64,000 nucleotides of DNA from a virus. The notes beneath the pieces were generated by a model. It did no database searches, had not been told where the DNA came from, and was given only the letters and a program-made list of their open reading frames with translations. Position numbers and translations under genes: made by a program. How positions within the stretch are numbered: position 1 is the first letter of the stretch; each line of letters begins with the position of its first letter. This document shows, piece by piece, positions 7,402-62,703 of this stretch. Where the stretch lies: IMG/VR virus record IMGVR_UViG_3300045988_129445; one strand, 5' to 3'.

Positions 7402-7836
7402 ATGAAAGCAGTATATCCTGTACTATTTACAAAAACCGATGACGGAAAATATTTAATTGAGGCACCAGATTTAAATGTATTAACGGAAGGAAAAGATATG
7501 TCGGATGCTATTAAAATGGCACGAGACGCAATGGAATTAACTTGTGTTTCTATGGAAGATAGAGAGGTGGAAATTCCTAAACCAACAAATATTACAGATA
7601 TCGATATTGCGAAAAGCACATTTTTTGATGAAGGAGAAACTATTATTTCATTGGTTGATATTGATTCAACAGAATATCGAAGAAAAATTGATACAAAATC
7701 TGTAAGAAGAAATGTTGCATTACCTAGTTGGTTAAATTATGAAGCAGAACATTCTGGAATTAATGTTTCTAAAGTGTTACAAGATGCACTTATTCAAGTA
7801 TTGAATGTTACTGATAGACCAAATTATAATAAATAG
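7402..7836 (+). CDS. hicB: HicB-family antitoxin (N-terminal HicB/UPF0150 domain plus C-terminal RHH-like DNA-binding tail), 144 aa
   Basis: YPVLFTKTDDGKYLIEAPDL...DAIKMARDAMEL is HicB-like; RRNVALPSWLNYEAEHSGINVSKVLQDAL is an RHH-like tail; GAGGTG ribosome-binding site then ATG 7402. Confidence 0.7.
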   Translation: MKAVYPVLFTKTDDGKYLIEAPDLNVLTEGKDMSDAIKMARDAMELTCVSMEDREVEIPKPTNITDIDIAKSTFFDEGETIISLVDIDSTEYRRKIDTKSVRRNVALPSWLNYEAEHSGINVSKVLQDALIQVLNVTDRPNYNK

Positions 7837-8166: not shown

Positions 8167-8200
8167 TACAAATTTTTACATAAGAAAGGTGGAATTAATT

Positions 8201-28647: not shown

Positions 28648-30113
28648 AACAGACAAATCCAATGTTATTAATTGATTTTTATAAAGCAGTTCATGCTGAA
28701 ATGTTACCAAAAGGTATTACAAAATCTGTTTCTTATTTTACTCCACGTATGAGCAGAGTAAAACGATGGAATGAAGTAGCCATGTTTGGATTACAAGGAT
28801 TCATTAAAGAGTATTTGGTCGATTATTTTAATGAGTATTTTTTCTTTGAATATAGAAACAAAGCAATTGGTACTTATAAGACAGTAATGGATGCAGCTCT
28901 TGGAGAAGGTACATATGGATTACAGAAAATCGAAGATTTATATGATCTTGGCTATCTTCCAATTGAGATTAAGGCTCTTCCTGAAGGAACTTTAGTACCA
29001 ATGCATGTGCCGATGTTTAGTATTGAGAATACACATAAAGATTTTGCATGGTTACCACAGGCATTAGAAAGCTTAATTTCCGCAGAAATGTGGCATCCGA
29101 TGATCGCCGCAACTGTTGGACATACATACAGACAGATTGTTAATAAGTTCTATGATATGACTTGTGATGACGATATTCCAAAATCTAAAGCATTAGGGGC
29201 TTTCGATTTTCGTGGCGAAGAATGTTTACAGTCTGCGGTTAAAGCAGGGGCAGGATGGTGTTTATCATTCTTAAATACTGCAACAGTTCCAACAATTCCG
29301 TATTTAGAGAGAAATTATAACTGTGATTGCACAAAAGAACCAGTTGCTTTTGGTAGTCCGTCTACTGAGCATTCGGTTATGTGTAGTAATTATGCGATTG
29401 ACGGAGATGAAGAGACTCTAATCAAAAGATTACTAACAGAGATTTACCCAAATACAAGTTTTTCTGCGGTATTGGACTCATATGATTATTGGAATGTCGT
29501 AGAAAATATTCTTCCAAAGCTTAAAAATGAGATTATGAATCACAACGGATGTCTTCTTATCAGAGGGGACTCAGGAGATTGTGTAGACGTAGTAACCAGA
29601 ACGGTATTTAAGTTATGGGAAGAGTTTGGGGGAACAACAAACAGTAAAGGTTATAAAGTTTTAAATCCTCATGTAAAAGCAATTTATGGAGATTCAATTA
29701 CAGTGCAGAGATGTGAGCAGATTTATGACATCTTAGAGAAAAATGGATTCGCAGCCAGCAATGTTGCACTTGGTGTTGGATCATTCTCATTTCAGTGTAT
29801 CGAAGAGGATGGAGTTTTGAAACCATTTACAAGAGATACATTTAGTAGTTGTATCAAAGCAACATATTGTGAGATTGATGGCAGACCATATCCAATTTTT
29901 AAGAATCCAAAAGATGGCGGATTTAAGAAATCTCAGAGAGGTTTATGTCATGTCTATAAAGGATCAGACAGCAAACTGACATTTAAAGATGGATATACTT
30001 CAGAAAATCTTCCAATGAATAATTTGCTCGAAACGGTATTCAGAGATGGCAAATTAGTAAAAGAACAGTCATTGCAGGAGATTAGAAGAGTGTTAAACGA
30101 AGGAGAATTTTAA
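28644..30113 (+). CDS. type-II phosphoribosyltransferase of the NAMPT/NadV family; candidate nicotinamide ADPR transferase (Namat-type) or NadV, 489 aa
   Basis: N-terminal NPMLLIDFYKAVHAEMLP matches NAMPT/PncB (DSYK/DAYK); size matches; start overlaps the Prs-like stop (ATGA). Confidence 0.65.
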   Translation: MKQTNPMLLIDFYKAVHAEMLPKGITKSVSYFTPRMSRVKRWNEVAMFGLQGFIKEYLVDYFNEYFFFEYRNKAIGTYKTVMDAALGEGTYGLQKIEDLYDLGYLPIEIKALPEGTLVPMHVPMFSIENTHKDFAWLPQALESLISAEMWHPMIAATVGHTYRQIVNKFYDMTCDDDIPKSKALGAFDFRGEECLQSAVKAGAGWCLSFLNTATVPTIPYLERNYNCDCTKEPVAFGSPSTEHSVMCSNYAIDGDEETLIKRLLTEIYPNTSFSAVLDSYDYWNVVENILPKLKNEIMNHNGCLLIRGDSGDCVDVVTRTVFKLWEEFGGTTNSKGYKVLNPHVKAIYGDSITVQRCEQIYDILEKNGFAASNVALGVGSFSFQCIEEDGVLKPFTRDTFSSCIKATYCEIDGRPYPIFKNPKDGGFKKSQRGLCHVYKGSDSKLTFKDGYTSENLPMNNLLETVFRDGKLVKEQSLQEIRRVLNEGEF

Positions 30114-30130: not shown

Positions 30131-30901
30131 ATGAGTTTTAATGCAGCAGAAACCAAAGACAGATTAGTGCAGTGGATCAGAGATTGGTTTGAAATTAATG
30201 GTAAAGGATGTAATGCCGTTGTAGGAATTTCAGGCGGTAAAGATTCGTCAGTGGTTGCAGCCTTATGCGTAGAAGCACTTGGCAAGAATCGAGTAATTGG
30301 AGTTATGATGCCACAGGGTGTGCAGTCAGATATTGAGTATGCTCAGATGCTATGTGATCATCTAGGAATTGAACATTACACAGTTAATATTTTTAATGCT
30401 TGCAGAGATATTAAACATGAAATCAGAGATGAATTAGGTGGTAAATGGAGTAAACAAAGTGCCACAAATTTACCTGCTCGTATCCGTATGGCTACATTAT
30501 ATGCTTTTGCACAGAGTATGAATGGAAGGGTAAGTTGTAATTGCAATTTATCCGAAGATTGGGTTGGATATGCGACTTATGGCGGAGATGGATTTGGATC
30601 ATTTGCTCCACTTGCCGATCTGACTGTGACAGAAGTTAAAGCAATTGGTAAAGTTCTGGGACTTCCAACAGAGTTAATCGAAAAAATTCCTACTGATGGG
30701 TTATGTGGTAAGACAGATGAAGATAATCTTGGATTTACATACGAAGTGTTGGATGAATATATCAGAACAGGTGAATGCAAGGATAAAGCAGTGAGACAGA
30801 TCATTGATGAAATGCATGAGAAGAATGTATTTAAACTTGCTCCAATGCCTAAATTTATATCTGGCATGTGGATCGAGGCAGGAATGGAGTTGGATGATTA
30901 A
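30131..30901 (+). CDS. nadE: NH3-dependent NAD+ synthetase (256 aa)
   Basis: PP-loop VVGISGGKDSSVVAAL and overall NadE-like length and composition. Confidence 0.8.
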   Translation: MSFNAAETKDRLVQWIRDWFEINGKGCNAVVGISGGKDSSVVAALCVEALGKNRVIGVMMPQGVQSDIEYAQMLCDHLGIEHYTVNIFNACRDIKHEIRDELGGKWSKQSATNLPARIRMATLYAFAQSMNGRVSCNCNLSEDWVGYATYGGDGFGSFAPLADLTVTEVKAIGKVLGLPTELIEKIPTDGLCGKTDEDNLGFTYEVLDEYIRTGECKDKAVRQIIDEMHEKNVFKLAPMPKFISGMWIEAGMELDD

Positions 30902-31301: not shown

Positions 31302-32729
31302 ATGATTGAAGTAATTGGAACAGTGGTACCAGTGGTTATTGCGGTAGGTGGCGTAGGAGCTATTATCGGTAGCGGTTATGTCAAAGCAAGTCCAGATAAA
31401 GCTTATATTATTTCTGGACTTAGAAAGACACCTAAGACATTAATTGGTAAGGCGGGGTTAAAAATCCCATTCTTTGAAAAAGCAGATCATCTTAATCTTG
31501 AGTTAATTCCAATTGATGTTAAGACATCAAGTTCTGTGCCTACAGCAGATTATATCAATATCAATGTAGATGCAGCGGTCAATGTAAAGGTTAGCAGTAA
31601 TCCAGAAAGATTAAAACTTGCAGCAGAAAACTTCTTAAATAAGCCAGTAGGCGATATTGGACAGGTCGCAAGAGAAGTCCTTGAAGGTAATATGCGAGAG
31701 ATTGTTGGAAAGATGAGTCTCGAAGAAATGGTTTCTGATCGTCAGAAATTTGCACAGCTTGTTACAGAAAATGCGAAGCCAGATCTTGCTGCAATGGGAT
31801 TAGATATTATCAGTTTTAATGTTCAGAATTTTATGGATGATAATGATGTTATTGAAAATCTTGGTGTAGATAATGTTGTTAAAATCAAGAAGAAGGCTGC
31901 GATTTCCAGAGCTGAAAGCGAAAGAGATATTGAAAAAGCAAAAGCAATGGCTGAAAAAGAAGCAAACGATGCAAAGGTAGAGTCAGCAACAGCGATTGCA
32001 GAAAAGAATAACAATCTGGAGATTAAAAAATCTGAGCTTGAAAAGATTTCAAAAGCAAAGAAAGCCGAGGCAGATGCAGCATACAAGATCCAGGAAGAAA
32101 AATCACGTAAAGAAATTGAAGTTGTAACTGCGGATGCTAATATTATGCGTCAGGAAAAGGAAATTGAACTGAAACGCAAAGACGTTGAGGTAACAGAGCA
32201 GACATTAGATGCACAGATCAAGAAGCAGGCAGAGGCTGAAAGATATGCTTCACAGCAGAAAGCAGATGCAGACTTATACAAGAAACAGAAAGAATCTGAA
32301 GCTAACAAATATGCTATGGAGCAGGAAGCTGAAGGTATTCGTGCAAAGGGTGTAGCAGAAGCCGAAGCAATCAAAGCCAAAGGTATTGCTGAAGCAGAAG
32401 CAATCGAAAAGAAAGCAGAAGCTATGAAACAGATGGGCAAAGCATCTATTGTAGAAATGATGTGTCAGATGTTCCCAGAAGCAGTTAAAAATGCAGCCGC
32501 ACCATTAGGAAATGTAGGAAGTATCACTATGTATGGAGAAGGAAACACAACAAAATTAACAAAAGATATTATGAATGTTGTGAATCAGGTATCAGATGGT
32601 GTTAAAGGATCTACAGGTGTTGATCTTGCAAAGATGTTAAAAGATTTTGTTTCTGAAGATAACGAAGTAGAATCTACAGATAATGTTGGTCAGCCAGAAG
32701 TATATTCAGACGATTATCGTGAGTTCTAA
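31302..32729 (+). CDS. flotillin-like SPFH/band-7 protein with N-terminal membrane anchor and Glu/Ala-rich repeat region (475 aa)
   Basis: N-terminal hydrophobic MIEVIGTVVPVVIAVGGVGAIIG; SPFH core (PDKAYIISGL...IPIDVKT...VDAAVNVKV); long KAxAxAEAEAI-type flotillin repeats. Confidence 0.75.
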   Translation: MIEVIGTVVPVVIAVGGVGAIIGSGYVKASPDKAYIISGLRKTPKTLIGKAGLKIPFFEKADHLNLELIPIDVKTSSSVPTADYININVDAAVNVKVSSNPERLKLAAENFLNKPVGDIGQVAREVLEGNMREIVGKMSLEEMVSDRQKFAQLVTENAKPDLAAMGLDIISFNVQNFMDDNDVIENLGVDNVVKIKKKAAISRAESERDIEKAKAMAEKEANDAKVESATAIAEKNNNLEIKKSELEKISKAKKAEADAAYKIQEEKSRKEIEVVTADANIMRQEKEIELKRKDVEVTEQTLDAQIKKQAEAERYASQQKADADLYKKQKESEANKYAMEQEAEGIRAKGVAEAEAIKAKGIAEAEAIEKKAEAMKQMGKASIVEMMCQMFPEAVKNAAAPLGNVGSITMYGEGNTTKLTKDIMNVVNQVSDGVKGSTGVDLAKMLKDFVSEDNEVESTDNVGQPEVYSDDYREF

Positions 32730-35260: not shown

Positions 35261-35803
35261 ATGAGTACAACAAAAACAATTGATATTTCAGTGCTGCCAG
35301 AGGCAGAACAGGATCTAATAAAAGCATTATTTGATAAATGCTGCGAAAGAGTAAAACCGAAAGTGGTTGAAGTAAAGCGTAAAGTTTGGAAGCCTAAAAT
35401 TGGTGAACATTATTGGTATCTATCTGGCGATGGTAATATTGGTACTATTACATGGTGTGGTTCTAAACTAGATGCAGATAGATACAAATTAGGAAATTGC
35501 TTCAGAACTGAAGAAGAGGCAAAGTTTGCAAGAGAGAAGAAAAAAGTAGAAGTAGAATTAGAAAGATATGGTAAAGAACATAATAATCCTGCTAAAGAGG
35601 AATGGGATGGAATCAACACACATTATCGAATTGGATATGATTTAGCTGATGATGATTTAGTGACAACGTCTGCTATAACAATTAGACGTATAGGAGATAT
35701 ATATTTTACATCCAAAGAAGTTGCAAAGGATGCCGCCAACAAAATCGGTACAAAACGTATCATAAAATATCTATTTGATGTTGATTGTGAGGTGGATGAA
35801 TAA
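35261..35803 (+). CDS. hypothetical protein (180 aa)
   Basis: Start overlaps the upstream stop (TAAATG). Confidence 0.5.
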   Translation: MSTTKTIDISVLPEAEQDLIKALFDKCCERVKPKVVEVKRKVWKPKIGEHYWYLSGDGNIGTITWCGSKLDADRYKLGNCFRTEEEAKFAREKKKVEVELERYGKEHNNPAKEEWDGINTHYRIGYDLADDDLVTTSAITIRRIGDIYFTSKEVAKDAANKIGTKRIIKYLFDVDCEVDE

Positions 35804-36261
35804 TGCTGATATTGATACTTATAATCGCCATAATTTGCTCGATAATTTGCTATTGTCATGCACAAAAGACAGGTAACTCCGATCTTGATGTTCTTGGTGT
35901 CGTATTGATTTTGATTAACTTTCTTGTCATTACAGTTTTATGTTTACTACTGAATAACTTGTATGAAAATCAAGGCGTCAATCAGAAAATCAAAATGTAC
36001 GAAACACAAAATCGGCAACTTGAAAGAAAAATTGATGTTGCAGTTAAGAGTTACATGAATCATGAAAAGGATACATACAAAGAATTTAAAGCTGGTGATG
36101 GAATGGCATTGATTACAACATATCCTGAATTAAGAAGCAATGAACTTGTTAAAGAACAGATGAATACATACCAAAGCAATAATCGTAAGATTGCAAAATT
36201 AAAAGAAAAAGAAATTGATTGCAATGTTACCAAGTGGTGGATTTATTTTGGAGGAGAATAA
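35803..36261 (+). CDS. membrane protein (152 aa)
   Basis: Two N-terminal transmembrane helices (LILILIIAIICSIICYC; VLGVVLILINFLVITVLCLLL). Confidence 0.5.
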   Translation: MLILILIIAIICSIICYCHAQKTGNSDLDVLGVVLILINFLVITVLCLLLNNLYENQGVNQKIKMYETQNRQLERKIDVAVKSYMNHEKDTYKEFKAGDGMALITTYPELRSNELVKEQMNTYQSNNRKIAKLKEKEIDCNVTKWWIYFGGE

Positions 36262-36263
36262 TT

Positions 36264-36533
36264 ATGAGAAAAGGAATTTTAATCGGTTGTATGGCAGTAA
36301 TTATGGGCTGTATGTTAGTAGGGTGTGATGCTCGCCCACATTACGCAGACGAAAATAACAATGATCAGATAACTGACTTTAATCAAATCAATGAGGTGCT
36401 ATGGTATGATTCAGCAACAAAGGTTGTTTATTATTATCCTCATGGTCGGTTTCTGTGTCCGTATATCAGTAAAGACGGGCAATACTGCCAGTATGAAGAT
36501 GGTAAAGTAGTTCCGTTAAAGAAAGAAGAATAA
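36264..36533 (+). CDS. lipoprotein (89 aa); start moved to ATG 36264
   Basis: GGAGGAGAATAATT ribosome-binding site; MRKGILIGCMAVIMGCMLVGC lipobox. Confidence 0.55.
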   Translation: MRKGILIGCMAVIMGCMLVGCDARPHYADENNNDQITDFNQINEVLWYDSATKVVYYYPHGRFLCPYISKDGQYCQYEDGKVVPLKKEE

Positions 36534-36535
36534 TT

Positions 36536-36730
36536 ATGAAAGTTTTATATAAAGGTAAGCCGTACAAAGTATATGGAATGCATACAAATTATAATTCAAC
36601 AGGTTGGGATCATGAAATTTATGCATATTTCTTGATTTTTACAAAAAAATACTGGCAGTGGATATCTACTGATGATTGTATACCATATAAAAAGAAGAAA
36701 TATAAACAGAAAGGAAACAAAAGGTATTAG
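36536..36730 (+). CDS. hypothetical small basic protein (64 aa)
   Basis: Track ORF; overlaps the next gene. Confidence 0.35.
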   Translation: MKVLYKGKPYKVYGMHTNYNSTGWDHEIYAYFLIFTKKYWQWISTDDCIPYKKKKYKQKGNKRY

Positions 36731-36830
36731 ATACAGATACGCACTTAGAGATGTTTCGCTATTTACACTTACGAATTGCGTTGATGATGAAGAAAAAATA
36801 ATATTTACAATTCAAGGGAGCGAGGCTGAT

Positions 36831-37151
36831 ATGAATTACAATCTAACATTCCCTGTCGTAGTTCTGAAAGATGAAAATGACTCAGTTCCATATATGGCAT
36901 ATATCCCATATTTTGATGTAATGACGCAGGGATATGATGAAGAAGAATTGCAGATGATGATCAAAGATTTGTTGAATCTCTGCTTAGAAGATAAGGAATC
37001 TTATACAATTCCTGCATGGGCATATAGTTATTTCAATGAAGACGATGTCAAGGAACGAGGCAGAAAATATTTCACTGAACTTGATGATGGAGACGATACA
37101 TATTTTCAGAAGAATTTTTACACAGTATGGTGGTTCGATTTTAGGAGATAG
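36831..37151 (+). CDS. solo HicB-like (UPF0150) domain protein (106 aa); start moved to ATG 36831
   Basis: FPVVVLKDENDSVPYMAYIPYFDVMTQGYDEEELQMMIKDLLNLCLED matches the HicB N-domain pattern; GGGAGCGAGGCTGAT ribosome-binding site. Confidence 0.45.
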   Translation: MNYNLTFPVVVLKDENDSVPYMAYIPYFDVMTQGYDEEELQMMIKDLLNLCLEDKESYTIPAWAYSYFNEDDVKERGRKYFTELDDGDDTYFQKNFYTVWWFDFRR

Positions 37152-37174
37152 TAGTAGAAAAGGAGAAAGATAAA

Positions 37175-37354
37175 ATGGACGTTTTGTTTTACATAATTTG
37201 GGTATTGGCGTTTATGGTGATCGTAGCAATTGGAATTGGAGTACCATATATGACTTATTACAATTACAAAAGAATTAAAGCAATGGATAAGAAACTTACA
37301 GGAATGTGTACGGGTCTTGGTATTATGTTAAGACCAGAAGAGGATAATGAATAA
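37175..37354 (+). CDS. small membrane protein (59 aa), below the track size cutoff
   Basis: AAAGGAGAAAGATAAA ribosome-binding site; MDVLFYIIWVLAFMVIVAIGIGVPYMTYYNYKRIKAMDKKLTGMCTGLGIMLRPEEDNE; stop overlaps the next start (TAATG). Confidence 0.4.
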   Translation: MDVLFYIIWVLAFMVIVAIGIGVPYMTYYNYKRIKAMDKKLTGMCTGLGIMLRPEEDNE

Positions 37355-37662
37355 TGAAAGATATGAGAAATAATCCCATTGAAAATGGAAATCTGTGTTT
37401 TAGATCAAGAATGGTAAATGGAGAAACATTGATTGGATATGCATTAGTTATCTCAAACAAGTTGTTTTGGAAAGACGGATGGAATAACTATATTTCTAGT
37501 CACGACAAACTTAATTCTAAGCAATTAATTGTCATCGAACACCTAAATGATGATGAAAAGAAAATGAGAAAAGAGTGGTTAAAGTTCATGGCAACAACAA
37601 AATCAAAAAAGGTTAAAGATGCAGACCGAGTAATTGTGAAAGACTTATTGAGTGAAATATGA
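37354..37662 (+). CDS. hypothetical protein (102 aa)
   Basis: Track ORF, translationally coupled to the upstream small gene. Confidence 0.5.
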   Translation: MKDMRNNPIENGNLCFRSRMVNGETLIGYALVISNKLFWKDGWNNYISSHDKLNSKQLIVIEHLNDDEKKMRKEWLKFMATTKSKKVKDADRVIVKDLLSEI

Positions 37663-37677
37663 GGTGTAAGATATTAA

Positions 37678-37854
37678 ATGAGAAGATTAATTTGGTATAT
37701 CAGGTCTTGTTTCTGTAAACATGATTGGGAACAGATATTTAATTCAGATATATATTGAAGTGAGAAATCAACTAAGCCTTATAAATGTGAAAAGGTTTAT
37801 CGGTGTAAGAAATGTGGCTGTGAGAAAAGATATACGACTGAGGGTAAAATCTGA
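37678..37854 (+). pseudogene. Zn-ribbon-like small ORF interrupted by one in-frame TGA (at 37756-37758); pseudogene or recoded stop
   Basis: MRRLIWYIRSCFCKHDWEQIFNSDIY-TGA-SEKSTKPYKCEKVYRCKKCGCEKRYTTEGKI in one frame; the cysteine pairs lie on both sides of the TGA. Confidence 0.3.
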
Positions 37855-37880
37855 GTTTTATGTAAAGTGAGGTGATTAAC

Positions 37881-38192
37881 ATGGAAGCCAATATTGAGTT
37901 TGCCATTGGCTATGCCATTGGGTTTTGTATCGTTGGGGCGATCGTATTTCTAAGACATGAAAGAAAGATGGATCGCCTGAGGCAGACAAATGTAAATCTG
38001 ATCTTAGCTAAGATGTCGTTTATGGCTGATGCTAACAACAAAGAAAATGATACATGTAATAAGGAAGAAACTCGTTCAGATGTTAAGGACGCAGTGAAGT
38101 ATGCAATGAAGAAAAGTCATCCAGATAATGGTGGCAGTGCAGATGATTTTAGAAAATTTAGAGAGCTTTATGAAGAAATGGAAGGTAAGTAA
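37881..38192 (+). CDS. hypothetical protein with N-terminal transmembrane helix (103 aa); start moved to ATG 37881
   Basis: GAGGTGATTAAC ribosome-binding site; FAIGYAIGFCIVGAIVFL. Confidence 0.45.
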   Translation: MEANIEFAIGYAIGFCIVGAIVFLRHERKMDRLRQTNVNLILAKMSFMADANNKENDTCNKEETRSDVKDAVKYAMKKSHPDNGGSADDFRKFRELYEEMEGK

Positions 38193-38474
38193 ATGCTAAA
38201 GGTCGGAGATAGAGTTTATATTTATAGAATGAAGCCAGCGGCTAAAGGAGGTTTGGTTAGAAATAACGACAAAGGTACAATTACTCGCATCGGAACAGAT
38301 GAGATTGGTCGCAGATATGGGTATAGATATATGACCGTTAAATTTGACAAACCAGTAAATACCTCTAATCGTGATATTTACTCTTTAGAATTTTTTGAAA
38401 ACAAGGATGATCGTAAGATAGGTAGAATACGAGATATTGGATTCTTACTATATGGTAGAAAATGTGAGGAATAA
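38193..38474 (+). CDS. hypothetical protein (93 aa)
   Basis: Overlaps the upstream stop (TAAATG). Confidence 0.5.
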   Translation: MLKVGDRVYIYRMKPAAKGGLVRNNDKGTITRIGTDEIGRRYGYRYMTVKFDKPVNTSNRDIYSLEFFENKDDRKIGRIRDIGFLLYGRKCEE

Positions 38475-38872: not shown

Positions 38873-39040
38873 ATGAAATCGAGACAACAACGAAAACAAG
38901 AGATAAAACGATTCTTTGATCGGCTGAGTCCTGAGGAATTGGACAAGCTATTAGAAAGAAATGGAATTAATGATAAAGAGTCTAATGAGGCTATTTCATA
39001 TAGAACTATAAAAGAAGAAATTGAGAAAGGAGAGATATAA
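38873..39040 (+). CDS. small hypothetical protein (55 aa), below the track size cutoff
   Basis: MKSRQQRKQEIKRFFDRLSPEELDKLLERNGINDKESNEAISYRTIKEEIEKGEI; a TTGACA sits 40 nt upstream. Confidence 0.3.
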   Translation: MKSRQQRKQEIKRFFDRLSPEELDKLLERNGINDKESNEAISYRTIKEEIEKGEI

Positions 39041-39041
39041 T

Positions 39042-39350
39042 ATGGCACATAACTTGTATATTGAAACACAATCAGAATATACAGGATGTAGTCCACAGCT
39101 GGAGGTATTAAATGTAAGAGATTGCAAACATATCATTGCATCATTAGATCATTATCCACCGACGGCAGACGAAGTTAAGAAAGCAATTTGTATTTTGACG
39201 GGACGATTGATCTACAGAAGCGTTTGGATTATGGAATCTGATATTGATAGTTTAAATATGAGTTTATCCCCGCCAAAAGAAATGACGATTGAAGAAATCG
39301 AAAAAGAACTCGGTCATAAAGTAAAAATTGTAGAGGAGAAAGAAAAATGA
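39042..39350 (+). CDS. hypothetical protein (102 aa); start moved to ATG 39042
   Basis: AAAGGAGAGATATAAT then ATG. Confidence 0.5.
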   Translation: MAHNLYIETQSEYTGCSPQLEVLNVRDCKHIIASLDHYPPTADEVKKAICILTGRLIYRSVWIMESDIDSLNMSLSPPKEMTIEEIEKELGHKVKIVEEKEK

Positions 39351-39760
39351 AAGTATTTTTAGGAGGAACATGCTCTGGCTGGAAATGGAGAGATCAGTTA
39401 CAAAAGATGTTAGATTGTGATTATTATAATCCGATCGTAAAAAATTGGAGTGAAGAAGACCGACTGCGAGAAGTTAAGGAAAGAGAAGAGTCCGATTATG
39501 TTCTGTATGGTATTACGAATGGTATTAAAGGAGTATACAGTATTGCAGAAGTAGTTGATGATTCTCATAAGAGACCAGATAAAGTGATCTTTCTTAATCT
39601 CTATCAGGAACAAAAGAATAAAGAATCTAAGCAGATGAGCCACAGTTTAAAAGCAGTCGAAAATTTATTGAAAGAAAATCGTATTAAAGTATATTCTGGT
39701 GTGCATGCTATGCAGGATGTTGCAGATTTTCTTAATTTAATGAATAAACGAAAGGGGTAA
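39347..39760 (+). CDS. small protein with possible nucleoside 2-deoxyribosyltransferase-like fold (137 aa)
   Basis: N-terminal MKVFLGGTCSGWKW resembles the NDT-fold N-terminus (KIYLAGP); weak call. Confidence 0.3.
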   Translation: MKVFLGGTCSGWKWRDQLQKMLDCDYYNPIVKNWSEEDRLREVKEREESDYVLYGITNGIKGVYSIAEVVDDSHKRPDKVIFLNLYQEQKNKESKQMSHSLKAVENLLKENRIKVYSGVHAMQDVADFLNLMNKRKG

Positions 39761-39766
39761 AGAAGA

Positions 39767-40720
39767 ATGAAATGTTTTTATCACGTTGATCAAGACGGGA
39801 TTGTGTCTGGGTTTTACGTTAGAAAAGCTTGCGAACAGCGAGGTTTAGCATTTGAACCAGAGGACTTCCGAAAAATTAATTACGGCATGAAATTCCCGTT
39901 TCATGACATTGAGCAGGATGAATTTGTGTTTATTGTAGACTACAGTATTGAGCCAGAAGAGATGTGGCAGTTGCTCAGTATTACAAAGAATGTATTTTGG
40001 ATCGACCATCATCAGTCTACGATTGAAGCGTATAAAGATTTCAAGTGTGATGTAAAAGGAATCAGAATTACTGGAGCGGGTATTTCAGGAGCGAATTTGA
40101 CATGGTTATATTTTAAATATATGTGTGATGAAAATTGGGAGCAAATTGAGAGGACGGATGAGAAAAATGTAAAAAGATTACTCAATATATATAAATATAA
40201 AGCAGATTATCCAAAACTGGCAGAATATACAGCCATGTGGGATACATTTTATTTTGGTGAAACGTCAAAACAATTCGTAAAAGCATTTCACTATGCATTT
40301 GAATCGTATGATTTTGATGCGTTAAGTCCATTGCTAAACACGTTAAATAAAGATCAAGGAATTTATGAAGCAGCAAAAATTATTGGTGATATGATAGCAG
40401 ATGGCTTATCAATTATTGAGTATTTAGCAGCAAATGCAGAACAATATCTTAGAGCATATGGTTTTGAAACCATATTTGAGGGACATAAAGTCTATGCAAT
40501 CAACAGAGCGTTAATCAATTCTGATTTCTTCGAATCTATTGATGCTTCTAAATACGATATGTTTATCGGTTTTTCATTCAATGGAAGTATGTGGGAATAT
40601 CAGCTACGATCCGCAGAACAAGATAAAGTAAATGTGTATGAGCTTGCTGTGAAATATGGTGGTGGCGGTCATCCAAATGCAGCTGGGTTCAGATGTGATA
40701 AATATGTATTAGGAGTGTGA
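39767..40720 (+). CDS. DHH-DHHA1 phosphoesterase (NrnA-like nanoRNase / pAp phosphatase family), 317 aa
   Basis: DHH motif I HVDQDGIVSG, motif III WIDHHQS, DHHA1 motif KYGGGGHPNAAGF. Confidence 0.7.
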   Translation: MKCFYHVDQDGIVSGFYVRKACEQRGLAFEPEDFRKINYGMKFPFHDIEQDEFVFIVDYSIEPEEMWQLLSITKNVFWIDHHQSTIEAYKDFKCDVKGIRITGAGISGANLTWLYFKYMCDENWEQIERTDEKNVKRLLNIYKYKADYPKLAEYTAMWDTFYFGETSKQFVKAFHYAFESYDFDALSPLLNTLNKDQGIYEAAKIIGDMIADGLSIIEYLAANAEQYLRAYGFETIFEGHKVYAINRALINSDFFESIDASKYDMFIGFSFNGSMWEYQLRSAEQDKVNVYELAVKYGGGGHPNAAGFRCDKYVLGV

Positions 40721-40723
40721 TGT

Positions 40724-41527
40724 ATGTCAAGGAAAAATACAAGAGAAATTGAACTTGCTTTTAGTAAAAACAGAGATCCAGATTGGGAAGCCGATGTGGA
40801 AATTTATAGAAGAAGAAAGTTCGAAGTAGTGCGTGGTATTTGTCTGGGAGATGAGTTTGCTGAAATTGAGTCTTTAGAATACAAAAATTGTGACGAGTTA
40901 GATGAAATGTATTATCGTTTTGATTATAATTTAAAAATACTTATGAAGTCTTATTTGTATGAATATACAGATTATGTGCCAATCGAAACAATGCATATTA
41001 CATCTCCTGCAATATTGTGTTGTGATGAAATTGTATTAAAAAACGGTGAGAAAATTTCTATTGATAACATATGTATTGATAAATCAAATGGCAATGAAGT
41101 TTATAAATTATATTCTAATAGTACATATACAGATGATGTATATTATGAATCTACTAAAGCATTAGTTTATGAATTGGCTAGTAAAGATGTTTGCAAGGCT
41201 ATACATATAATGAAAGATATGATGGACAAAGCGTATATAAAAGCAAGAAATGAACGAAGCATACATCCTTTTATTAGCCACTTGTTTAACGACCCTCCAA
41301 TTCCATGTATTAAAAATAAATATTCTATACATGATTTAGTAATGGGTACATTAAAATGCAGTGGTGATATTTATAAAGAAATAAACAAAGAAGTCCCAAA
41401 TGCTATAGATATGATTGTGCCTCATCCTGGAAGACATGCAGAGTATTATTTTGGGTTAGATTATACAGATGAAGTAGAGCAATTTATTAAAGAACAGGAG
41501 GCTAAGAAATGTGAAGAAACTAAATGA
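40724..41527 (+). CDS. hypothetical protein (267 aa)
   Basis: GGAGTGTGATGTATG context. Confidence 0.5.
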   Translation: MSRKNTREIELAFSKNRDPDWEADVEIYRRRKFEVVRGICLGDEFAEIESLEYKNCDELDEMYYRFDYNLKILMKSYLYEYTDYVPIETMHITSPAILCCDEIVLKNGEKISIDNICIDKSNGNEVYKLYSNSTYTDDVYYESTKALVYELASKDVCKAIHIMKDMMDKAYIKARNERSIHPFISHLFNDPPIPCIKNKYSIHDLVMGTLKCSGDIYKEINKEVPNAIDMIVPHPGRHAEYYFGLDYTDEVEQFIKEQEAKKCEETK

Positions 41528-42062
41528 TGAACAGCGAAAGCTGATTGAAGATAATTATTCTTTGATTTGGCATTTGCATGAGAAGTATTTTACAAAATTT
41601 AAAGATTTTGATACATATATGGATCTTGGTCGTATGGCAATTTGCAAAGCAGCATTAAAATGGGATGAGTCTAAAGGTAATTTTGGGACGTATTTTAGAT
41701 GGGTATTACAGTCAGAAATTAATAAATATTATATAAAATGGCATAGCCCAACAGAGAAAATGAACAGAAATGCGGAATCATTGGATGCACCTGTTGACGA
41801 AAGAGTTGACGCAGAAGAATTAACAATTGGTAGTTTGCTTGTGAGTAACGATGACATAGAGAGTCAAGCATTAACAACAGTATATTATCAAGGAGAATTT
41901 AACAAATTGTCAGACAAGCAGAAGAAAATTATATATATGTTACTTGATGATATTGAACATAAATACATAGCCAAAGAATTTGGAAAGAGTATTCAATGGG
42001 TAAGTTGGCAACTTGGTAATATTAAAAAAATAATGCATAGGGCAAAGGCGGTGAGATCATGA
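41511..42062 (+). CDS. sigma-70-family sigma factor, small TcdR/UviA-like type (183 aa, GTG start)
   Basis: Region 2: DLGRMAICKAALKWDESKGNFGTYFRWVLQSEINKY; region 4 HTH: YIAKEFGKSIQWVSWQLGNIKKIM; AGGAGG ribosome-binding site. Confidence 0.75.
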   Translation: MKKLNDEQRKLIEDNYSLIWHLHEKYFTKFKDFDTYMDLGRMAICKAALKWDESKGNFGTYFRWVLQSEINKYYIKWHSPTEKMNRNAESLDAPVDERVDAEELTIGSLLVSNDDIESQALTTVYYQGEFNKLSDKQKKIIYMLLDDIEHKYIAKEFGKSIQWVSWQLGNIKKIMHRAKAVRS

Positions 42063-42880
42063 CAATTGAAGAAGTGAAAGATTACATAAACTCGTCTACA
42101 GAGTATGATTTTTTGCGAGATTATCCTCATAAAATCGCTTTTCTCACACTAGGTGGAAGTTATGCTTACGGAACAAATACAGAGGATTCTGACATTGATT
42201 TACGTGGTGTTTTCCTTAGTGATAAAAGAGAGATTTTGTTGAATAATAATCAGAACAATCTTGAGAAGACCGATGATCATAAAGACATTGATACCGTGTT
42301 ACATTCGCATATTAAGATGGTTAATATGCTTGCTAAGGGCAATCCTACATTTTTAGAGTTGCTATACTTTGCACCAGACCGCTATTTGTATGTATCCGAT
42401 ATTGGTATGGAGTTGATCAAAAATAGAGATATGTTCTTATCTAAGAGAGTTTGTCATGCATATAAAGGATATATTTGTGATTGCCTAGAACAAGCATACG
42501 TGAGATGTTCTAAATCAGACGACATTCAAAAGAAAACAAAATTTGCCAATAAATCAATGATGCATGCTGTTCGTTTGTTGCTCCAAGTGATTCAATTACT
42601 ACAATGTGGAACTATGTGTGGAACAATTGAAGAAATAGGAAAAGACCTTATAGATATTAAGATGGGGTACAATACTTTGTGTGAAAAGAGACATCTTCCA
42701 GATGGCACTGAATGTACGGATTATCGTCCAAACGAATCTTATAATGTGTTTACTAACAGACTATTGTCTGAATTTGAGTATGGGTACAAACATACAACCT
42801 TGCCAGACGAACCAGACTGGGATCGTATCAATAACTTCTTGATGACAACAAATGAACGAATTGTGAGAGGAATGGTGTAA
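42059..42880 (+). CDS. Pol-beta-superfamily nucleotidyltransferase with C-terminal helical domain (273 aa)
   Basis: LTLGGSYAYGTNTEDSDIDLRGVF is the GS-x9-13-DxD nucleotidyltransferase signature; start overlaps the sigma-gene stop. Confidence 0.65.
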   Translation: MTIEEVKDYINSSTEYDFLRDYPHKIAFLTLGGSYAYGTNTEDSDIDLRGVFLSDKREILLNNNQNNLEKTDDHKDIDTVLHSHIKMVNMLAKGNPTFLELLYFAPDRYLYVSDIGMELIKNRDMFLSKRVCHAYKGYICDCLEQAYVRCSKSDDIQKKTKFANKSMMHAVRLLLQVIQLLQCGTMCGTIEEIGKDLIDIKMGYNTLCEKRHLPDGTECTDYRPNESYNVFTNRLLSEFEYGYKHTTLPDEPDWDRINNFLMTTNERIVRGMV

Positions 42881-42882
42881 AA

Positions 42883-43152
42883 ATGTATGTAAAGATTGGA
42901 GACGAAATTGCTTTTCATCCTGGCGAATGCTTAGAAGAATTTGTTGAATCTTGCAGGATGACTCCTTATCAGCTTGCGAGTAAAATTGGCATGGATGTTG
43001 ATTATGTTCAAGGGTTGATTGACGGATCACAAAGTGTCACAAAAGAATTTGCAAAATCAATGGCAGATCATTATGGGTTCTCTGACGATGGACAGTTTTG
43101 GTTAAACTTGCAAGAAACATTTGATAAAAAAGTAGGTGGCATAGATGTTTAA
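42883..43152 (+). CDS. HigA-family XRE-type antitoxin-like HTH protein (89 aa)
   Basis: IAFHPGECLEEFVE...TPYQLASKIGMDVDYVQGLIDGSQSVTKEFAKSMADHYGFSDDGQFWLNLQETFD closely follows the HigA pattern (IHPGEIL-EEFLEP...LA--LGVS---I--II-G-R-IT---ALRLA--FG-S--FWLNLQ). Confidence 0.65.
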   Translation: MYVKIGDEIAFHPGECLEEFVESCRMTPYQLASKIGMDVDYVQGLIDGSQSVTKEFAKSMADHYGFSDDGQFWLNLQETFDKKVGGIDV

Positions 43153-43678
43153 ATTAATAAAACGCCCACGTTCTGATAACGATCAATATACTAAATATGA
43201 TGTTGTGCTTGATAAAGAATATACTGTAGAAGAATTTATTGATGCGATTGCAGATGGAAGAAATGGAACGCATGGTCAAATTACAATAAAAAATGATAAA
43301 CAAGCCATTGAATCATTTGGCTATAATATCGAGAGTATTAATTATAGACATTGTAGACTTCAAAATGCTGAAGAAAAAATTAAACAAGTATGGGCAGATG
43401 GTAGCTGGGTAAAAATCAATTATACTATCTTACTTGAAAACAAACAGGAAACACAAAAAGGTGCGCTCAGATTTATTGTTAAGAAGCCAAATGGGGAAGA
43501 ATCAGTGGTGGTTATTTTTAAGAACAAATCCGATGGCACATATTCATTTGTTAATTTGACAAAAGAGCATATTTGTTCATGTAAATTTAAAACAATTGAG
43601 GAAGCCATTCAGGATATGAATGATCGCTTAAGAAAAGGATTGATTGAGTCCTATATTGTGAAAGGAGAAAGAAAATAA
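43145..43678 (+). CDS. hypothetical protein (177 aa)
   Basis: Overlapping start (ATAGATG). Confidence 0.5.
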   Translation: MFKLIKRPRSDNDQYTKYDVVLDKEYTVEEFIDAIADGRNGTHGQITIKNDKQAIESFGYNIESINYRHCRLQNAEEKIKQVWADGSWVKINYTILLENKQETQKGALRFIVKKPNGEESVVVIFKNKSDGTYSFVNLTKEHICSCKFKTIEEAIQDMNDRLRKGLIESYIVKGERK

Positions 43679-44016
43679 TGGATATACATATTGGAGATTT
43701 TTGTCAGAACAAATGTAATCCAAAAGTAATTCAACATGTAGTTAATTTTTCATTTAGAATGGGTGGATTTCCAAGTAGTAAAGATATGCTACTGATCTGT
43801 GAAGAATTTCATTGTACAAAGATAGGTGAGGATTCTGCCTCTGTTAAAGAAGATTCCAGATTCTTCACACATATTACAGTGGATAATTTTAAAAAGATGA
43901 ATCAATGTATCCTCAGTGCAGAAAGAATTATGAAAGACACTCAGACATTTAAGACAGACAAAGATATTTTGGATTATTTAACGAAGAAAGTCGAGGAGAA
44001 ATTGAATGCAAAATAA
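43678..44016 (+). CDS. hypothetical protein (112 aa)
   Basis: TAATGG overlap with the upstream gene. Confidence 0.5.
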   Translation: MDIHIGDFCQNKCNPKVIQHVVNFSFRMGGFPSSKDMLLICEEFHCTKIGEDSASVKEDSRFFTHITVDNFKKMNQCILSAERIMKDTQTFKTDKDILDYLTKKVEEKLNAK

Positions 44017-44488
44017 TATATTTCAGATTTATTTGGCTGGCGGTATGCAGGATTTATCATTTGAAGAACAGAATGAGTGGAGAGAAGAAATTTGTAGGTG
44101 TATCAATAGTCGCTGCGAGAAATCATTAGTTGATGTAAAACCAGTTAACATTATCAATCCAGTAGATTATTACAATTTTGAAAATGACAAAGCTGAGACA
44201 GAAAAAGAAGTTATGAGATTTGATACTCGGCTTGTTAAGAATAGCGATTTGATTATTGTGTACGCAAACGATCCAAAGAGCATTGGCACATCTATGGAAA
44301 TTGCTATTGCCCATGAGAATAATATTCCAGTATTAATTTTAAACGATGGGAACGAAAAACTTCATTCTTGGTGGATTGAGATGTCTGATAGGGTGTTTAG
44401 TGAATATATTGGTCTGTGCCTATACGTTGTAGATTTTTACTTGGAGATGAAGCACTATAGCGCAAAATATAACGTGACAATAAAATAG
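44006..44488 (+). CDS. nucleoside 2-deoxyribosyltransferase (NDT/Rcl-DNPH1) family protein (160 aa)
   Basis: IYLAGGM N-terminus; SIGTSMEIAIAHENNIPVLIL aligns with the NDT catalytic-Glu region GLGMELGYA...KPV. Confidence 0.55.
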   Translation: MQNNIFQIYLAGGMQDLSFEEQNEWREEICRCINSRCEKSLVDVKPVNIINPVDYYNFENDKAETEKEVMRFDTRLVKNSDLIIVYANDPKSIGTSMEIAIAHENNIPVLILNDGNEKLHSWWIEMSDRVFSEYIGLCLYVVDFYLEMKHYSAKYNVTIK

Positions 44489-44630: not shown

Positions 44631-45665
44631 GTGAAAGCTTTAAATAATATTCTGTCTGGGCATTCGGCTGATGAATTGGATAAATTATTTGTGTCCGATC
44701 CACATTATGCAGAGTTTTTAAAATATGTAAACTGGCGAAAAAATTGTGAAATGGGAAGAACTACATGGGGCTTCATTGATTATAATTTAGGAACATTGTT
44801 TAAATATGCAAGTAAATATTCGGTATGTGAGCAGTTCTTTGCTATAGGATTTACACATAAACAAGTCACAGAAGATTTTAAATATTCAATCAATGAAGTA
44901 CCAAAATGGTTAAGGAATTATTGTCTTGGTGTGAAGAATAGACGATTGTTAAGTAATGATTTTGTTGATTTTTATAAGATGTATCCAGATTATGTACAAA
45001 CGATTTTACAGACAGAGTATATGACATTAACTAAAGAATATTTAATAAATTTCTTCGAGGATAATCATAGATATCGTTTTACGAAAATTTTGGAGGCTTT
45101 AAATCAGGATTATGGCTATAATCTTGCAGATGTGTTTGTTTATATAGATAGAATAATTACATTTGAAGCTGCTACCAATAGTATAAATTGGTTACTCGGA
45201 GAATTGCGTGATTATGCTCGTATGATGGACGCAATCAGTCATAAATTTGATAGATATCCAAGACATTTCAAAACAACAATGGATATTGTCACAAGAAATT
45301 ACAAAAGATTGCAAAAAGAATTTTCGGAAGAAGTCTTTAAGAACCGTATTAATAAAGAATATGAATTTACATATAAAGGACTGAGATTCTTTTATCCGAA
45401 TTGTACTCAAGATATTAAAGACGAAGCGGTACAGCAGAATAATTGTGTGGCAAGTTACATAGATCGAGTCATTGATGGCGAATGCCACATTATGTTCTTA
45501 AGAAGAGTAAAAGAACCAAACAAATCGTTAGTGACGATTGAAATACAAAATGGACGAATCGTACAAGCGCTGCAAAGATTCAACGATCCTCTAACTGCTG
45601 ATCAGCAAGAAGCGGTCGATGCATGGAATGAACATTTTAGTAAGAAAGGTAAGGTGGCAGCATGA
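44631..45665 (+). CDS. hypothetical protein (344 aa, GTG start; the same frame stays open upstream to 44517 without a canonical start)
   Basis: Track ORF; upstream in-frame stretch reads ITITAEKQGKFIIFHLDDGKTCKYDLSNGDCYGKSGKK. Confidence 0.5.
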   Translation: MKALNNILSGHSADELDKLFVSDPHYAEFLKYVNWRKNCEMGRTTWGFIDYNLGTLFKYASKYSVCEQFFAIGFTHKQVTEDFKYSINEVPKWLRNYCLGVKNRRLLSNDFVDFYKMYPDYVQTILQTEYMTLTKEYLINFFEDNHRYRFTKILEALNQDYGYNLADVFVYIDRIITFEAATNSINWLLGELRDYARMMDAISHKFDRYPRHFKTTMDIVTRNYKRLQKEFSEEVFKNRINKEYEFTYKGLRFFYPNCTQDIKDEAVQQNNCVASYIDRVIDGECHIMFLRRVKEPNKSLVTIEIQNGRIVQALQRFNDPLTADQQEAVDAWNEHFSKKGKVAA

Positions 45666-48797: not shown

Positions 48798-49337
48798 ATG
48801 TCGTTGAAATTAAATGACGAACAGAGAAAATTAGTAGAACAAAATCATAATTTGATTTACTCTGCTATGACAAAATGCGGTATCCGCAGACAAGATTTTG
48901 ATGACTATTATGGATTCGCTGCCATTGGGTTGTGTAAGGCAGCAATTGATTATGATGAATCCAAAGCTAAATCATTCTCTACATATGCATATAAATGTAT
49001 GCAAAAAGAAATTATAGCATATACTCGATGGAGATTTGCAGATAAAAGAGATGAACGACTTACCTTATCGTACAATCAGTTAATGAATGATTTAGATGAA
49101 GACGAAAAAGAATATTCTTTTTTGCTATCTGATAAAAAAAATAATGAAAAAAAATTAATTTTCTTTTTGTGTTTTGATGAACAAATGCGAATACTAAATA
49201 ATAAGGACAGGTTAATTATTAATTTAAAGGCAAAAGGGTATACGAACGAAGAAATAGGAAATACCATTGGTGTTACATATCAAGCAATTCAATATCAATT
49301 GAAAAAAATTAAAAATAAATTAATCCCATCCTTATAA
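48798..49337 (+). CDS. sigma-70-family sigma factor, TcdR/UviA-like (179 aa); paralog of the 41511 gene
   Basis: N-terminal LNDEQRKLVEQNHNLIY compared with LNDEQRKLIEDNYSLIW in the paralog; region 2 AIGLCKAAIDYDESKAKSFSTYAYKCMQKEI; region 4 YTNEEIGNTIGVTYQAIQYQLKKIKNKL. Confidence 0.7.
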   Translation: MSLKLNDEQRKLVEQNHNLIYSAMTKCGIRRQDFDDYYGFAAIGLCKAAIDYDESKAKSFSTYAYKCMQKEIIAYTRWRFADKRDERLTLSYNQLMNDLDEDEKEYSFLLSDKKNNEKKLIFFLCFDEQMRILNNKDRLIINLKAKGYTNEEIGNTIGVTYQAIQYQLKKIKNKLIPSL

Positions 49338-54273: not shown

Positions 54274-55302
54274 ATGGATGTAGCACAGCTAAAAGAATAT
54301 ATATACGACAATAATTATGTAGAAAATATTCTGAAAGATATAGGCTGTCATCATATTAAATATCATTCGTCTGGATATTGGAGCTGTGCAAATAAAGATG
54401 GGGATAATGAATCCGCAGTTATTACATATAACAACGAAAACCTAAATTGCACAAATTATACAAGAAAAATGACAGTAAAAGAAAGACAGACAGATTTAAT
54501 TGACTTGGTATGCTTTACAAAAAGTCTGTCTTTCCCAGACGGTTTAAAATATCTAGCCAATTTGATCGGCATAGATTATTATCATGATTTTAATGAGCAA
54601 CTGCCAGAAAGTTTGCAGATCACTCAATTGATTCATGATATGAAAGAAAATATAGAAACCGAAGAAGATAAACCAGTCAAACCAATTTCAAAACGAATTC
54701 TTTCTTATTATAAGGACTATGTTAATGATCTGTTTTATGAAGATCATATTACTTATTTAACACAGAAAGAATTTAATATTGGCTATGACGAAGATACAAA
54801 CAGAATTACAATACCTATTTTTTCTGAAATTGGTGATTTGGTAGGTGTTAAAGGACGATTGTTCAAGAAAGAGTTAGATAAACATGATTTGAAATATTTA
54901 TATATTGAGCCATGCGCTAGACAAAGAATCTTATACGGATTGAATAAAACTCTACCTTATATAGAAAGGGTTGGAAGAGTATATGTTGCAGAAGCAGAAA
55001 AAGCTGTCATGCAGCTATGGTCATATGGATATCAAAATGTTGTAGCAACTGGCGGCAAGCAAGTTTCAAGACAGCAAATTGATATGTTAACAAGACTCGG
55101 AGTTGAAGTAGTATTTATTTTTGACAAAGATGTTGAGTTAGAAGAGATTCAAAAGCTTGGCGATCGTTTTATTGATGGAGTTCCGATTTCATACATCATG
55201 GATAACTCAAAAGAAGGAATCCTTGATGAAAAAGAATCACCTACTGATGATCCTAAAAAATGGGAACTATTGTTAAATAACTATTTGTATACACTTAAAT
55301 AA
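54274..55302 (+). CDS. DnaG-type primase (Toprim domain), 342 aa
   Basis: Toprim core VYVAEAEKAVMQLWSYGYQNVVATGGKQVSRQQIDMLTRLGVEVVFIFDKD; N-terminal Cys/His cluster. Confidence 0.65.
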   Translation: MDVAQLKEYIYDNNYVENILKDIGCHHIKYHSSGYWSCANKDGDNESAVITYNNENLNCTNYTRKMTVKERQTDLIDLVCFTKSLSFPDGLKYLANLIGIDYYHDFNEQLPESLQITQLIHDMKENIETEEDKPVKPISKRILSYYKDYVNDLFYEDHITYLTQKEFNIGYDEDTNRITIPIFSEIGDLVGVKGRLFKKELDKHDLKYLYIEPCARQRILYGLNKTLPYIERVGRVYVAEAEKAVMQLWSYGYQNVVATGGKQVSRQQIDMLTRLGVEVVFIFDKDVELEEIQKLGDRFIDGVPISYIMDNSKEGILDEKESPTDDPKKWELLLNNYLYTLK

Positions 55303-55369
55303 GAACAGGCAGGTTATACATATAAAATACAAATTATATGAAGGTGGCACAAATGATACCTCTAATGTT

Positions 55370-57118: not shown

Positions 57119-57129
57119 GGTGAAAGTTA

Positions 57130-62626: not shown

Positions 62627-62645
62627 CTTTATTCTTTGCACCTAT

Positions 62646-62683
62646 TGACAAGGTGCAAGAAGTATGATAAGATACCAATATGT
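62646..62683 (+). promoter_or_regulatory. promoter (-35 TTGACA, 17-nt spacer, -10 TAAGAT) inside the palindrome TTGCACC-N9-GGTGCAA; near-identical to the element at 19540
   Basis: TTGCACCTATTGACAAGGTGCAAGAAGTATGATAAGAT. Confidence 0.5.
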
Positions 62684-62703
62684 TAATGAAAGGAGATGTG
62701 AAA

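Follow-up and report, generated by a model that had tools for sequence, protein, structure and literature searches.

In the 64,000-nt stretch of viral DNA analyzed here (IMG/VR record IMGVR_UViG_3300045988_129445, hereafter the window), a gene encoding a 273-amino acid (aa) Pol-beta nucleotidyltransferase (NTase; 42059–42880, + strand) is directly followed by a gene encoding an 89-aa HigA-like protein with an XRE-type helix-turn-helix (HTH; 42883–43152, + strand). An earlier note on this DNA had reported both adjoining open reading frames (ORFs), which are present as described, and had read them as an uncharacterized toxin–antitoxin (TA) or abortive-infection-like module. Our results point elsewhere: the NTase belongs to the RlaP family, its pairing with the HTH gene is found in one phage clade only, and within that clade the HTH gene has been lost, frameshifted or fused in phages that keep the NTase intact. 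We therefore consider it probable that the NTase is a phage RlaP that would extend or restore RNA 3' ends damaged by ribotoxins and that the HigA-like protein is an independent accessory XRE factor, and very unlikely that the pair is a new TA system. What we establish here is the family membership and catalytic motifs of the NTase, the statistics of its neighborhood and the pattern of presence, absence and fusion of the HTH gene. Both genes are real and they are adjacent, but adjacency does not amount to partnership, and it is this step that fails.

The NTase matches the Pfam RlaP profile (PF10127) over nearly its full length (positions 14–248 of 249) with an E-value of 3e-24 and a score of 86.5 bits, where the gathering threshold is 23, and it matches PHROG 388 (phrog_388, "nucleotidyltransferase") at 1.9e-41. 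Its only other Pfam matches are to the generic NTase core (PF01909, 2.8e-6; PF18765, 5.5e-6). PF10127 is likewise the precomputed assignment of the full-length homologs listed, from 96% down to about 38% identity, with the truncated homologs P0011 and P0037 carrying no assignment. The GS-x11-DID signature noticed earlier (LTLGGSYAYGTNTEDSDIDLRGVF) is indeed present and is matched by Pol-beta NTase profiles. The catalytic motif reads G32-G33-S34 ... D45-I-D47 with a third Asp at D78 and fits the Pol-beta signature, hG[GS]-x(9-13)-Dh[DE]h followed by another conserved Asp; in our alignment A1, which reaches down to 39% identity, D78 never varies, and D45 and D47 are conserved to 90% or more. By tblastn, 260 isolate phages have homologs in their genomes, which carry no annotation beyond nucleotidyltransferase and are all at roughly 35% identity or less at full length, with mycobacteriophages, SPO1-like Bacillus phages, jumbo coliphages and Aeromonas phages among their carriers.

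An AlphaFold2 (AF2) model of the NTase (mean predicted local distance difference test score, pLDDT, 79.7) comprises N-terminal helices (residues 3–21), a beta core, a run of helices from 129 to 244 and a terminal helix (254–269) that probably packs back onto the N-terminal helices. The helical C-domain anticipated by the earlier note is thus seen in the model as a long helical domain and terminal helix following the N-terminal NTase domain. Among predicted viral structures, the model matches 28 "nucleotidyltransferases" at E ≤ 1e-3, with template modeling (TM) scores of 0.6 to about 0.67. Likeness to structures in the PDB is weak and limited to the kanamycin NTase ANT(4') and MntA (E about 3e-3, TM below 0.4; for ANT(4'), TM 0.36–0.38 at 13% identity), while sequence and profile searches of the PDB recover only the shared MNT core, with a best E-value of 3e-4. 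In its predicted order of domains the NTase would resemble the Pseudomonas RlaP proteins, whose NTase and helical domains are closed by a C-terminal helix and which carry three strictly conserved Asp residues (PMC12776372).

NTases that act as toxins are found in other TA families, AbiEii and MenT, whereas in MNT/HEPN systems the NTase is the antitoxin and not the toxin. The resemblance between the pair described here and AbiEii/AbiEi, MenT/MenA (DUF1814) or MNT/HEPN (MntA/HepT) modules, namely a Pol-beta-superfamily NTase with a small partner gene, does not extend to the families involved. No Pfam match of the NTase to AbiEii (PF08843) or CD-NTase was found at E ≤ 0.1, nor any to the aminoglycoside NTase families; the profiles proposed in the earlier note are thus not matched. 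The MntA model NF047752, whose cut-off is 60, reaches 23.2 bits and covers only the N-terminal core (residues 25–83). PADLOC gave no ABI or MenT model with the NTase and only weak N-terminal PDC-S09 matches, and no AbiEii or MenT structure is among the top 50 PDB matches of the model. The partner gene is neither AbiEi/COG5340 nor MenA, no HEPN match was found in the neighbors scanned, and MNT proteins of type VII TA systems, at about 100–140 aa, are much smaller than the 273-aa NTase with its extra helical domain. Profile and motif place the NTase, over its full length, in the RlaP family and not in the AbiEii/MenT, MNT or CD-NTase families.

RlaP proteins have been linked to RNA repair. A December 2025 preprint describes the Pseudomonas enzymes PfRlaP and PaRlaP as acting on RNA only, adding one or two nucleoside monophosphates to a 3'-OH and preferring Mn2+, with the broken end of a nicked-tRNA mimic as a favored substrate; RlaP can restore aminoacylation of a tRNA that is short of one anticodon-loop nucleotide, and the NrdC.11 protein of phage T4 belongs to the same family (PMC12776372). 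A comparative study of jumbo phages found RlaP to be their most prevalent repair NTase, with the predicted task of replacing nucleotides that RNases of the host have taken off (PMC7824862). The window NTase shares with this family (PF10127, including the P. fluorescens and P. aeruginosa enzymes, T4 NrdC.11 and PHROG 388) the full-length profile match, the Pol-beta motifs, the predicted NTase and helical domains with a terminal helix, and a home in large phages, where the family is common. It differs in being about 30% identical or less to any isolate-phage homolog and in occurring as at least four strongly diverged helical-domain alleles within one phage clade. The family thereby gains a divergent member from gut phages in which several alleles of the helical domain have been swapped.

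The genomic company that RlaP keeps is also that of RNA-end repair. Our comparison set comprised RlaP loci from bacteria (80) and from divergent viruses (about 25), together with the contexts of individual homologs. Over 100 diverse loci, the gene downstream of RlaP was in one-quarter (25 loci) a CCA-adding enzyme, recognized by its motif and, for L218, confirmed with Pfam; in 5 loci RlaP was followed by another RlaP paralog, and in 2 (L100, L103) by a Pnkp-type kinase-phosphatase-Rnl1 RNA ligase. These recurrent downstream neighbors often overlap RlaP by 11 nt. The P0089 locus, too, has RlaP followed by a CCA-adding enzyme, and the closest homologs of the window NTase outside its clade adjoin CCA-adding enzymes and Pnkp-type RNA ligases. 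NADAR and nucleoside-deoxyribosyltransferase-like (NDT-like) genes adjoin RlaP in diverse loci as well. What RlaP is conserved with, then, is RNA-end repair and not an XRE antitoxin. Indeed, a hidden Markov model (HMM) of the HigA-like protein, searched against 5407 ORFs of 114 diverse RlaP loci, matched only in the window's own phage clade, and in the isolate phages MarvelLand and DyoEdafos the small ORF that follows RlaP has no HTH match. In these loci the pairing is thus absent outside one phage clade, which is among the grounds on which a partnership between NTase and HTH protein is unsupported.

Within that clade, whose members are gut phages of about 160 kb, we sampled 53 IMG/VR loci on contigs of about 85–170 kb with a common gene order, 51 of them informative. 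The HigA-like gene is full length in 48 of the 51, frameshifted in one (L048) and deleted in two (L040, L051), where the NTase stop abuts the next gene. The NTase is full length in all of these loci, the three exceptions included, and its catalytic motif, read directly in L040 and L051, is intact. Beyond IMG/VR, a very widespread allele, P0139, is frameshifted by the loss of one nucleotide from a run of T at HigA-like codon 11. It was read on 24 contigs, 167 collection blocks are indexed for it, and in the 4 places inspected, which come from different samples, the NTase is intact. Also beyond IMG/VR, in P0010-type phages (at least 20 contigs), which carry an NTase allele of 64% identity, HigA-like residues 1–85 are fused in frame to residues 86–177 of the downstream protein; an HMM scan places this fusion at 5840–6370 in L055 and L056, the equivalent of window positions 42883–43678. 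The HigA-like gene is thus dispensable for an intact NTase. Since the HTH is lost, truncated or fused while the NTase remains catalytically intact, the reading of the HigA-like protein as a cognate antitoxin is disfavored, and the generic expectation of TA co-inheritance, that no toxin is kept without its antitoxin, does not hold for this pair. Separately, in one record (L053/L202, IMGVR_UViG_3300029856_000147) only about the first 64 codons of the NTase remain and run into the C-terminal part of a RecD2-like helicase, followed by a 3D-domain protein and an NAD-dependent DNA ligase; relative to the window, this appears to be either a deletion of about 19 kb, removing the HigA-like gene and all that follows up to about 61.7 kb, or an assembly chimera.

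Taken together, these data make it highly improbable that the NTase is a toxin (for instance one that nucleotidylates tRNA in the manner of MenT or AbiEii) held in check by the HigA-like protein as antitoxin and autorepressor. The 2-nt gap, the toxin-first order of higBA, the resemblance of the HTH protein to HigA/VapI antitoxins before all else, the synteny of the pair in 48 of 51 related loci and the existence of NTase toxins in other TA families all speak for such a module, which would represent a new NTase-toxin/HigA-antitoxin family. They are set against an NTase with no AbiEii match, a sub-threshold MntA score, weak PADLOC matches and no AbiEii or MenT among its top PDB matches; against membership in a repair family with CCA-adding and RNA-ligase neighbors; against natural deletion (L040, L051), frameshift (L048, P0139) and fusion (L055/L056) of the HTH gene beside intact catalytic residues; and against the absence of pairing beyond the clade and of a gap for a promoter or operator. 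The module proposed in the earlier note is, for these reasons, not one that we would retain, and the natural series of deletion, frameshift and fusion illustrates how adjacency alone misleads TA prediction in tightly packed phage arrays.

As a phage RlaP, the NTase would be expressed as one gene of a long co-directional early/middle array and, by homology, would most likely lengthen the 3'-OH end of a broken RNA by one or two nucleotides without a template. Its substrates are probably tRNAs that have been nicked or trimmed by anticodon nucleases of the host or by other ribotoxins, and the extension would let the RNA be resealed or its 3' end be restored, the enzyme acting together with ligase or CCA-adding functions that the host or a distant part of the phage genome supplies. 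Such an enzyme would serve RNA maintenance or, as we infer, counter-defence. The HigA-like gene would have been acquired by the clade between the NTase gene and the next gene; its product would not be the antitoxin of the NTase and is most plausibly a small transcriptional regulator or an orphan antitoxin-like factor, presumably with a DNA target, and it possibly acts with the 177-aa protein, its fusion partner in sister phages.

Several points weigh against this account. RNA repair by RlaP is described in a single preprint, for distant Pseudomonas homologs, so that for the phage enzyme this function is assigned by homology. RNA ligase, polynucleotide kinase, RtcB and CCA-adding enzyme were not found by Pfam among all window ORFs of at least 200 aa, and the flanks (about 10 kb downstream and about 8 kb upstream) yielded no repair gene either. 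Over the roughly 82 kb covered, the phage thus shows none of the repair-gene neighborhood by which bacterial RlaP is defined, and in this it differs from the family at large. No tRNA genes, which would offer a repair context, are present in the window. The HigA-like gene, for its part, is full length in nearly all of the IMG/VR loci (48 of 51), is under purifying selection and holds a constant position, and a clade-specific functional link between it and its neighbors is conceivable. Lastly, the frameshifted allele has an internal Met from which a 64-aa HTH fragment could still be expressed.

The HTH protein itself is a HigA-like homolog, as judged from profiles, though one without certified membership in the equivalog family: it scores 42.4 bits (E 4.5e-11) with TIGR02607 antidote_HigA, below the equivalog cut-off of 47.7. 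Further matches are to PHROG 1381 (1.1e-10; "plasmid antitoxin with HTH domain"), to Pfam PF13560 at 26.7 bits and, in the PDB, to VapI (3trb) at 2.8e-8, 3cec at 2e-4 and several HigA chains at 1e-3 to 9e-3. The HigA-like XRE pattern (HPGE...FWLNLQ) that the earlier note had recognized is hence borne out by TIGR02607, PHROG 1381 and 3trb. Across 31 alleles the gene has a dN/dS of about 0.15, indicating purifying selection, and it is functional where present. Close homologs of the protein are found only inside the clade.

Compared with HigA and VapI proteins of higBA loci (TIGR02607; 3trb, 4mcx, 6chv), the protein shows the same size, XRE HTH, N-terminal hPGE segment and C-terminal FWLNLQ, and its gene lies downstream of another, as in a toxin-first order. 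The likeness stops at the toxin, for no HigB/RelE-type toxin was detected in the window, upstream or anywhere else. The nearest HTH match outside the clade in phage records, on a high-GC "Bacteriophage sp." scaffold (MT836021), does have a 93-aa ORF directly upstream that is HigB/RelE-like by inspection; phmmer with this ORF, a single-sequence query of limited sensitivity, found no HigB-like ORF among the 586 ORFs of the window, and the opposite-strand ORFs under the pair have no Pfam family match. The score just below the NCBIfam cut-off, the lack of an upstream operator region and the dispensability of the gene in sister phages set it further apart from higBA. It also recalls the orphan HTH proteins of PHROG 1381 (moron/host-takeover category), where a small HigA-like HTH likewise stands alone among phage accessory genes; it differs from them in that the window-type HTH is also seen fused to a clade-specific beta-rich domain, and the role named in the PHROG 1381 annotation is itself putative. 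We accordingly describe the gene at 42883–43152 as a putative orphan HigA/VapI-family XRE HTH, accessory and restricted to the clade.

The layout of the locus and its lack of regulatory signals bear on whether the HTH protein could control its neighbors. The window has a GC content of 33.6% and holds about 95 tightly packed genes of a large phage, nearly all on the plus strand. The NTase TAA ends at 42880 and the HTH ATG lies at 42883, leaving a 2-nt gap (the four nucleotides given previously were a trivial miscount); the stop of the preceding gene and the NTase start share 4 nt in an ATGA overlap, and the gene at 43145 overlaps the HTH stop by 8 nt. Across the window, 38 of 93 junctions overlap or have a gap of at most 10 nt, and close spacing is thus a generic property of this gene array. 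The preceding gene (41511–42062, + strand) encodes a sigma-70-family factor (TIGR02937, 45.1 bits; PHROG 351), in agreement with the earlier statement that the pair sits directly after a phage sigma factor. As the sigma stop overlaps the NTase start, there is no room for a dedicated promoter or operator of the NTase/HTH pair, and no promoter or operator space was found upstream of the NTase. Promoter-like and terminator-like sites near the pair are not above shuffled controls, the only palindromes near it are short, AT-rich and inside coding sequence, with none above chance, and the pair lacks the promoter of its own with a palindromic operator that is typical of higBA-type loci.

These data also bear on the possibility that the HigA-like protein regulates transcription of a phage gene block that includes the NTase, with no toxin neutralization involved. 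The XRE-type HTH fold, the purifying selection on the gene and its surroundings, which look regulatory and begin just past a phage sigma factor gene, would suit such a role; we nonetheless hold it to be rather unlikely in view of the missing intergenic region or conserved palindrome, the promoter-like sites at chance level and the natural variants that dispense with the HTH. The related proposal of the earlier note, an anti-defence NTase under HigA-like autoregulation, divides accordingly: an anti-defence role fits the function of the RlaP family, but the autoregulation has neither an operator or promoter signal behind it nor the HTH gene itself in some natural variants.

Next to the pair, the gene at 43145–43678 (+ strand) encodes a clade-specific 177-aa protein of unassigned function, with homologs in the clade only and an AF2 model (pLDDT 82.9) of two small beta-rich domains. 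A structure search of the PDB with this model gave no significant match and no RelE/HigB-like fold. We considered this protein as a HigB/RelE-like or HicB-like partner and dropped the idea in light of the beta-rich model and the absence of a significant PDB match. A C-terminal module of about 70 aa (LRFIVKKPNGEES...GLIESY) recurs with other N-terminal parts. The 177-aa protein could still be the real partner of the HigA-like protein, the two forming a unit of HTH and beta-rich effector or sensor that has nothing to do with the NTase. In keeping with this, the genes overlap by 8 nt, the in-frame fusion (residues 1–85 to 86–177) occurs naturally on 20 contigs and the C-terminal module is seen with different N-terminal parts; yet the downstream gene is present without the HigA-like gene in L040 and L051, the fusion may be a tolerated deletion accident, the model has no recognizable toxin or enzyme fold and overlaps are common in the array. 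On balance we judge this partnership unlikely.

It is similarly a minor possibility that the HigA-like protein is an orphan antitoxin mimic that, alone or with the beta-rich domain, neutralizes or derepresses a HigB-type or XRE-controlled toxin or defence system of the host. The region would then be an accessory counter-defence stretch in which the protein joins RlaP, NAD+ salvage genes and, in relatives, Tad2-like sponges.

Returning to the NTase as a phage RlaP, its alleles are strikingly mosaic. At least four forms occur (the window compared with L005, L039, L040, L054 and L055), in phages whose flanking genes are about 90–100% identical and among which NTase residues 1–60 and 246–273 are near-identical. 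The helical domain between (136–245), putatively the part that binds RNA, is only 22–52% identical, with near-saturated synonymous divergence (pS of 0.64–0.80 versus 0–0.39 in the ends). The conserved ends that stay together correspond to the parts that form the three-helix bundle of PfRlaP. Similar allelic mosaicism is seen in neighboring genes (the sigma factor, the gene at 40724, the NDT-like genes and the gene at 43145); alleles of the sigma gene before the NTase group into three classes, at about 99, 63 and 35% identity, in phages that are otherwise alike. We make no claim of diversifying selection specific to the NTase, as several neighboring genes are mosaic in a similar way, and treat the apparent swapping of the helical domain as cassette exchange typical of the region; as a less likely reading, it could stem from an arms race in which the choice of damaged host RNAs for repair is at stake.

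Two genes upstream of the NTase lies a gene for a DHH/DHHA1 phosphoesterase of about 315 aa (39767–40720, + strand; PHROG 4771 at 7e-36). In a divergent phage lineage, a 317-aa gene of unconfirmed family (L057, 3977–4930) is directly upstream of RlaP, and in another a 314-aa DHHA1 protein (L059, 3130–4074) is two genes upstream. Suggestively, the phosphoesterase may be an RNA-end or nucleotide processing partner of RlaP that supplies end-healing chemistry. Nucleoside 2-deoxyribosyltransferase-like (SLOG-like) genes flank the block on both sides (39347–39760 and 44006–44488, both + strand), the second followed by a gene for a PcfJ-like protein (44631–45665, + strand), and in an unrelated locus (L081) an NDT-like gene likewise adjoins RlaP.

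The phage itself is, on sequence comparison, without a close cultured relative: megablast of the 38–48 kb region against isolate phages gave no match, and its DnaE is at most 36% identical to that of any isolate phage. A homologous region in one Anaerostipes sp. assembly hints at a host in the Lachnospiraceae.

Elsewhere in the window, the early region encodes a 57-aa HicA toxin (7170–7343, + strand; PF07927, 1.7e-9) and a 168-aa HicB-like antitoxin (7330–7836, + strand; PF15919, 4.7e-10) whose genes overlap by 14 nt; by their profiles these two form a bona fide TA-type pair, unlike the NTase/HTH pair. An adjacent NAD+ salvage pair is encoded by a phosphoribosyltransferase gene (NAPRTase plus NAMPT_N, 28644–30113, + strand) and a gene for NadE NAD synthase (30131–30901, + strand), and a SPFH/flotillin protein follows (31302–32729). 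Genes of this kind are known to counter NAD-depleting defences. Relatives carry one to three Tad2-like (PF11195) genes (L054, 2124–2721; L055, 1975–2572; L063, 14867–15130), which in gene order come after the replication module and immediately before the DHH gene; Tad2 is a family of anti-Thoeris sponges. No Tad2 match was found in the small window ORFs scanned at the corresponding position (35261–38474, 39021–39350).

The replication module of the window (54274–63342, + strand) comprises genes for a Toprim primase-like protein, a RecJ-like DHH exonuclease, a DnaE-type Pol III alpha subunit, a RecD2-like helicase and a 3D-domain protein, and in relatives (downstream in L063) it is followed by genes for an NAD-dependent DNA ligase, LemA, an ADP-ribosylglycohydrolase and NrdD/NrdG. 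A second sigma-70-family factor (48798–49337, + strand) brings the phage to at least two. Finally, the early region also encodes two Bro-N domain proteins (8189–9553 and 10112–11206, both + strand), and a gene for a tyrosine-recombinase (Phage_integrase) protein (17441–18391, + strand) overlaps that for a calcineurin-like metallophosphoesterase (18388–19134, + strand).

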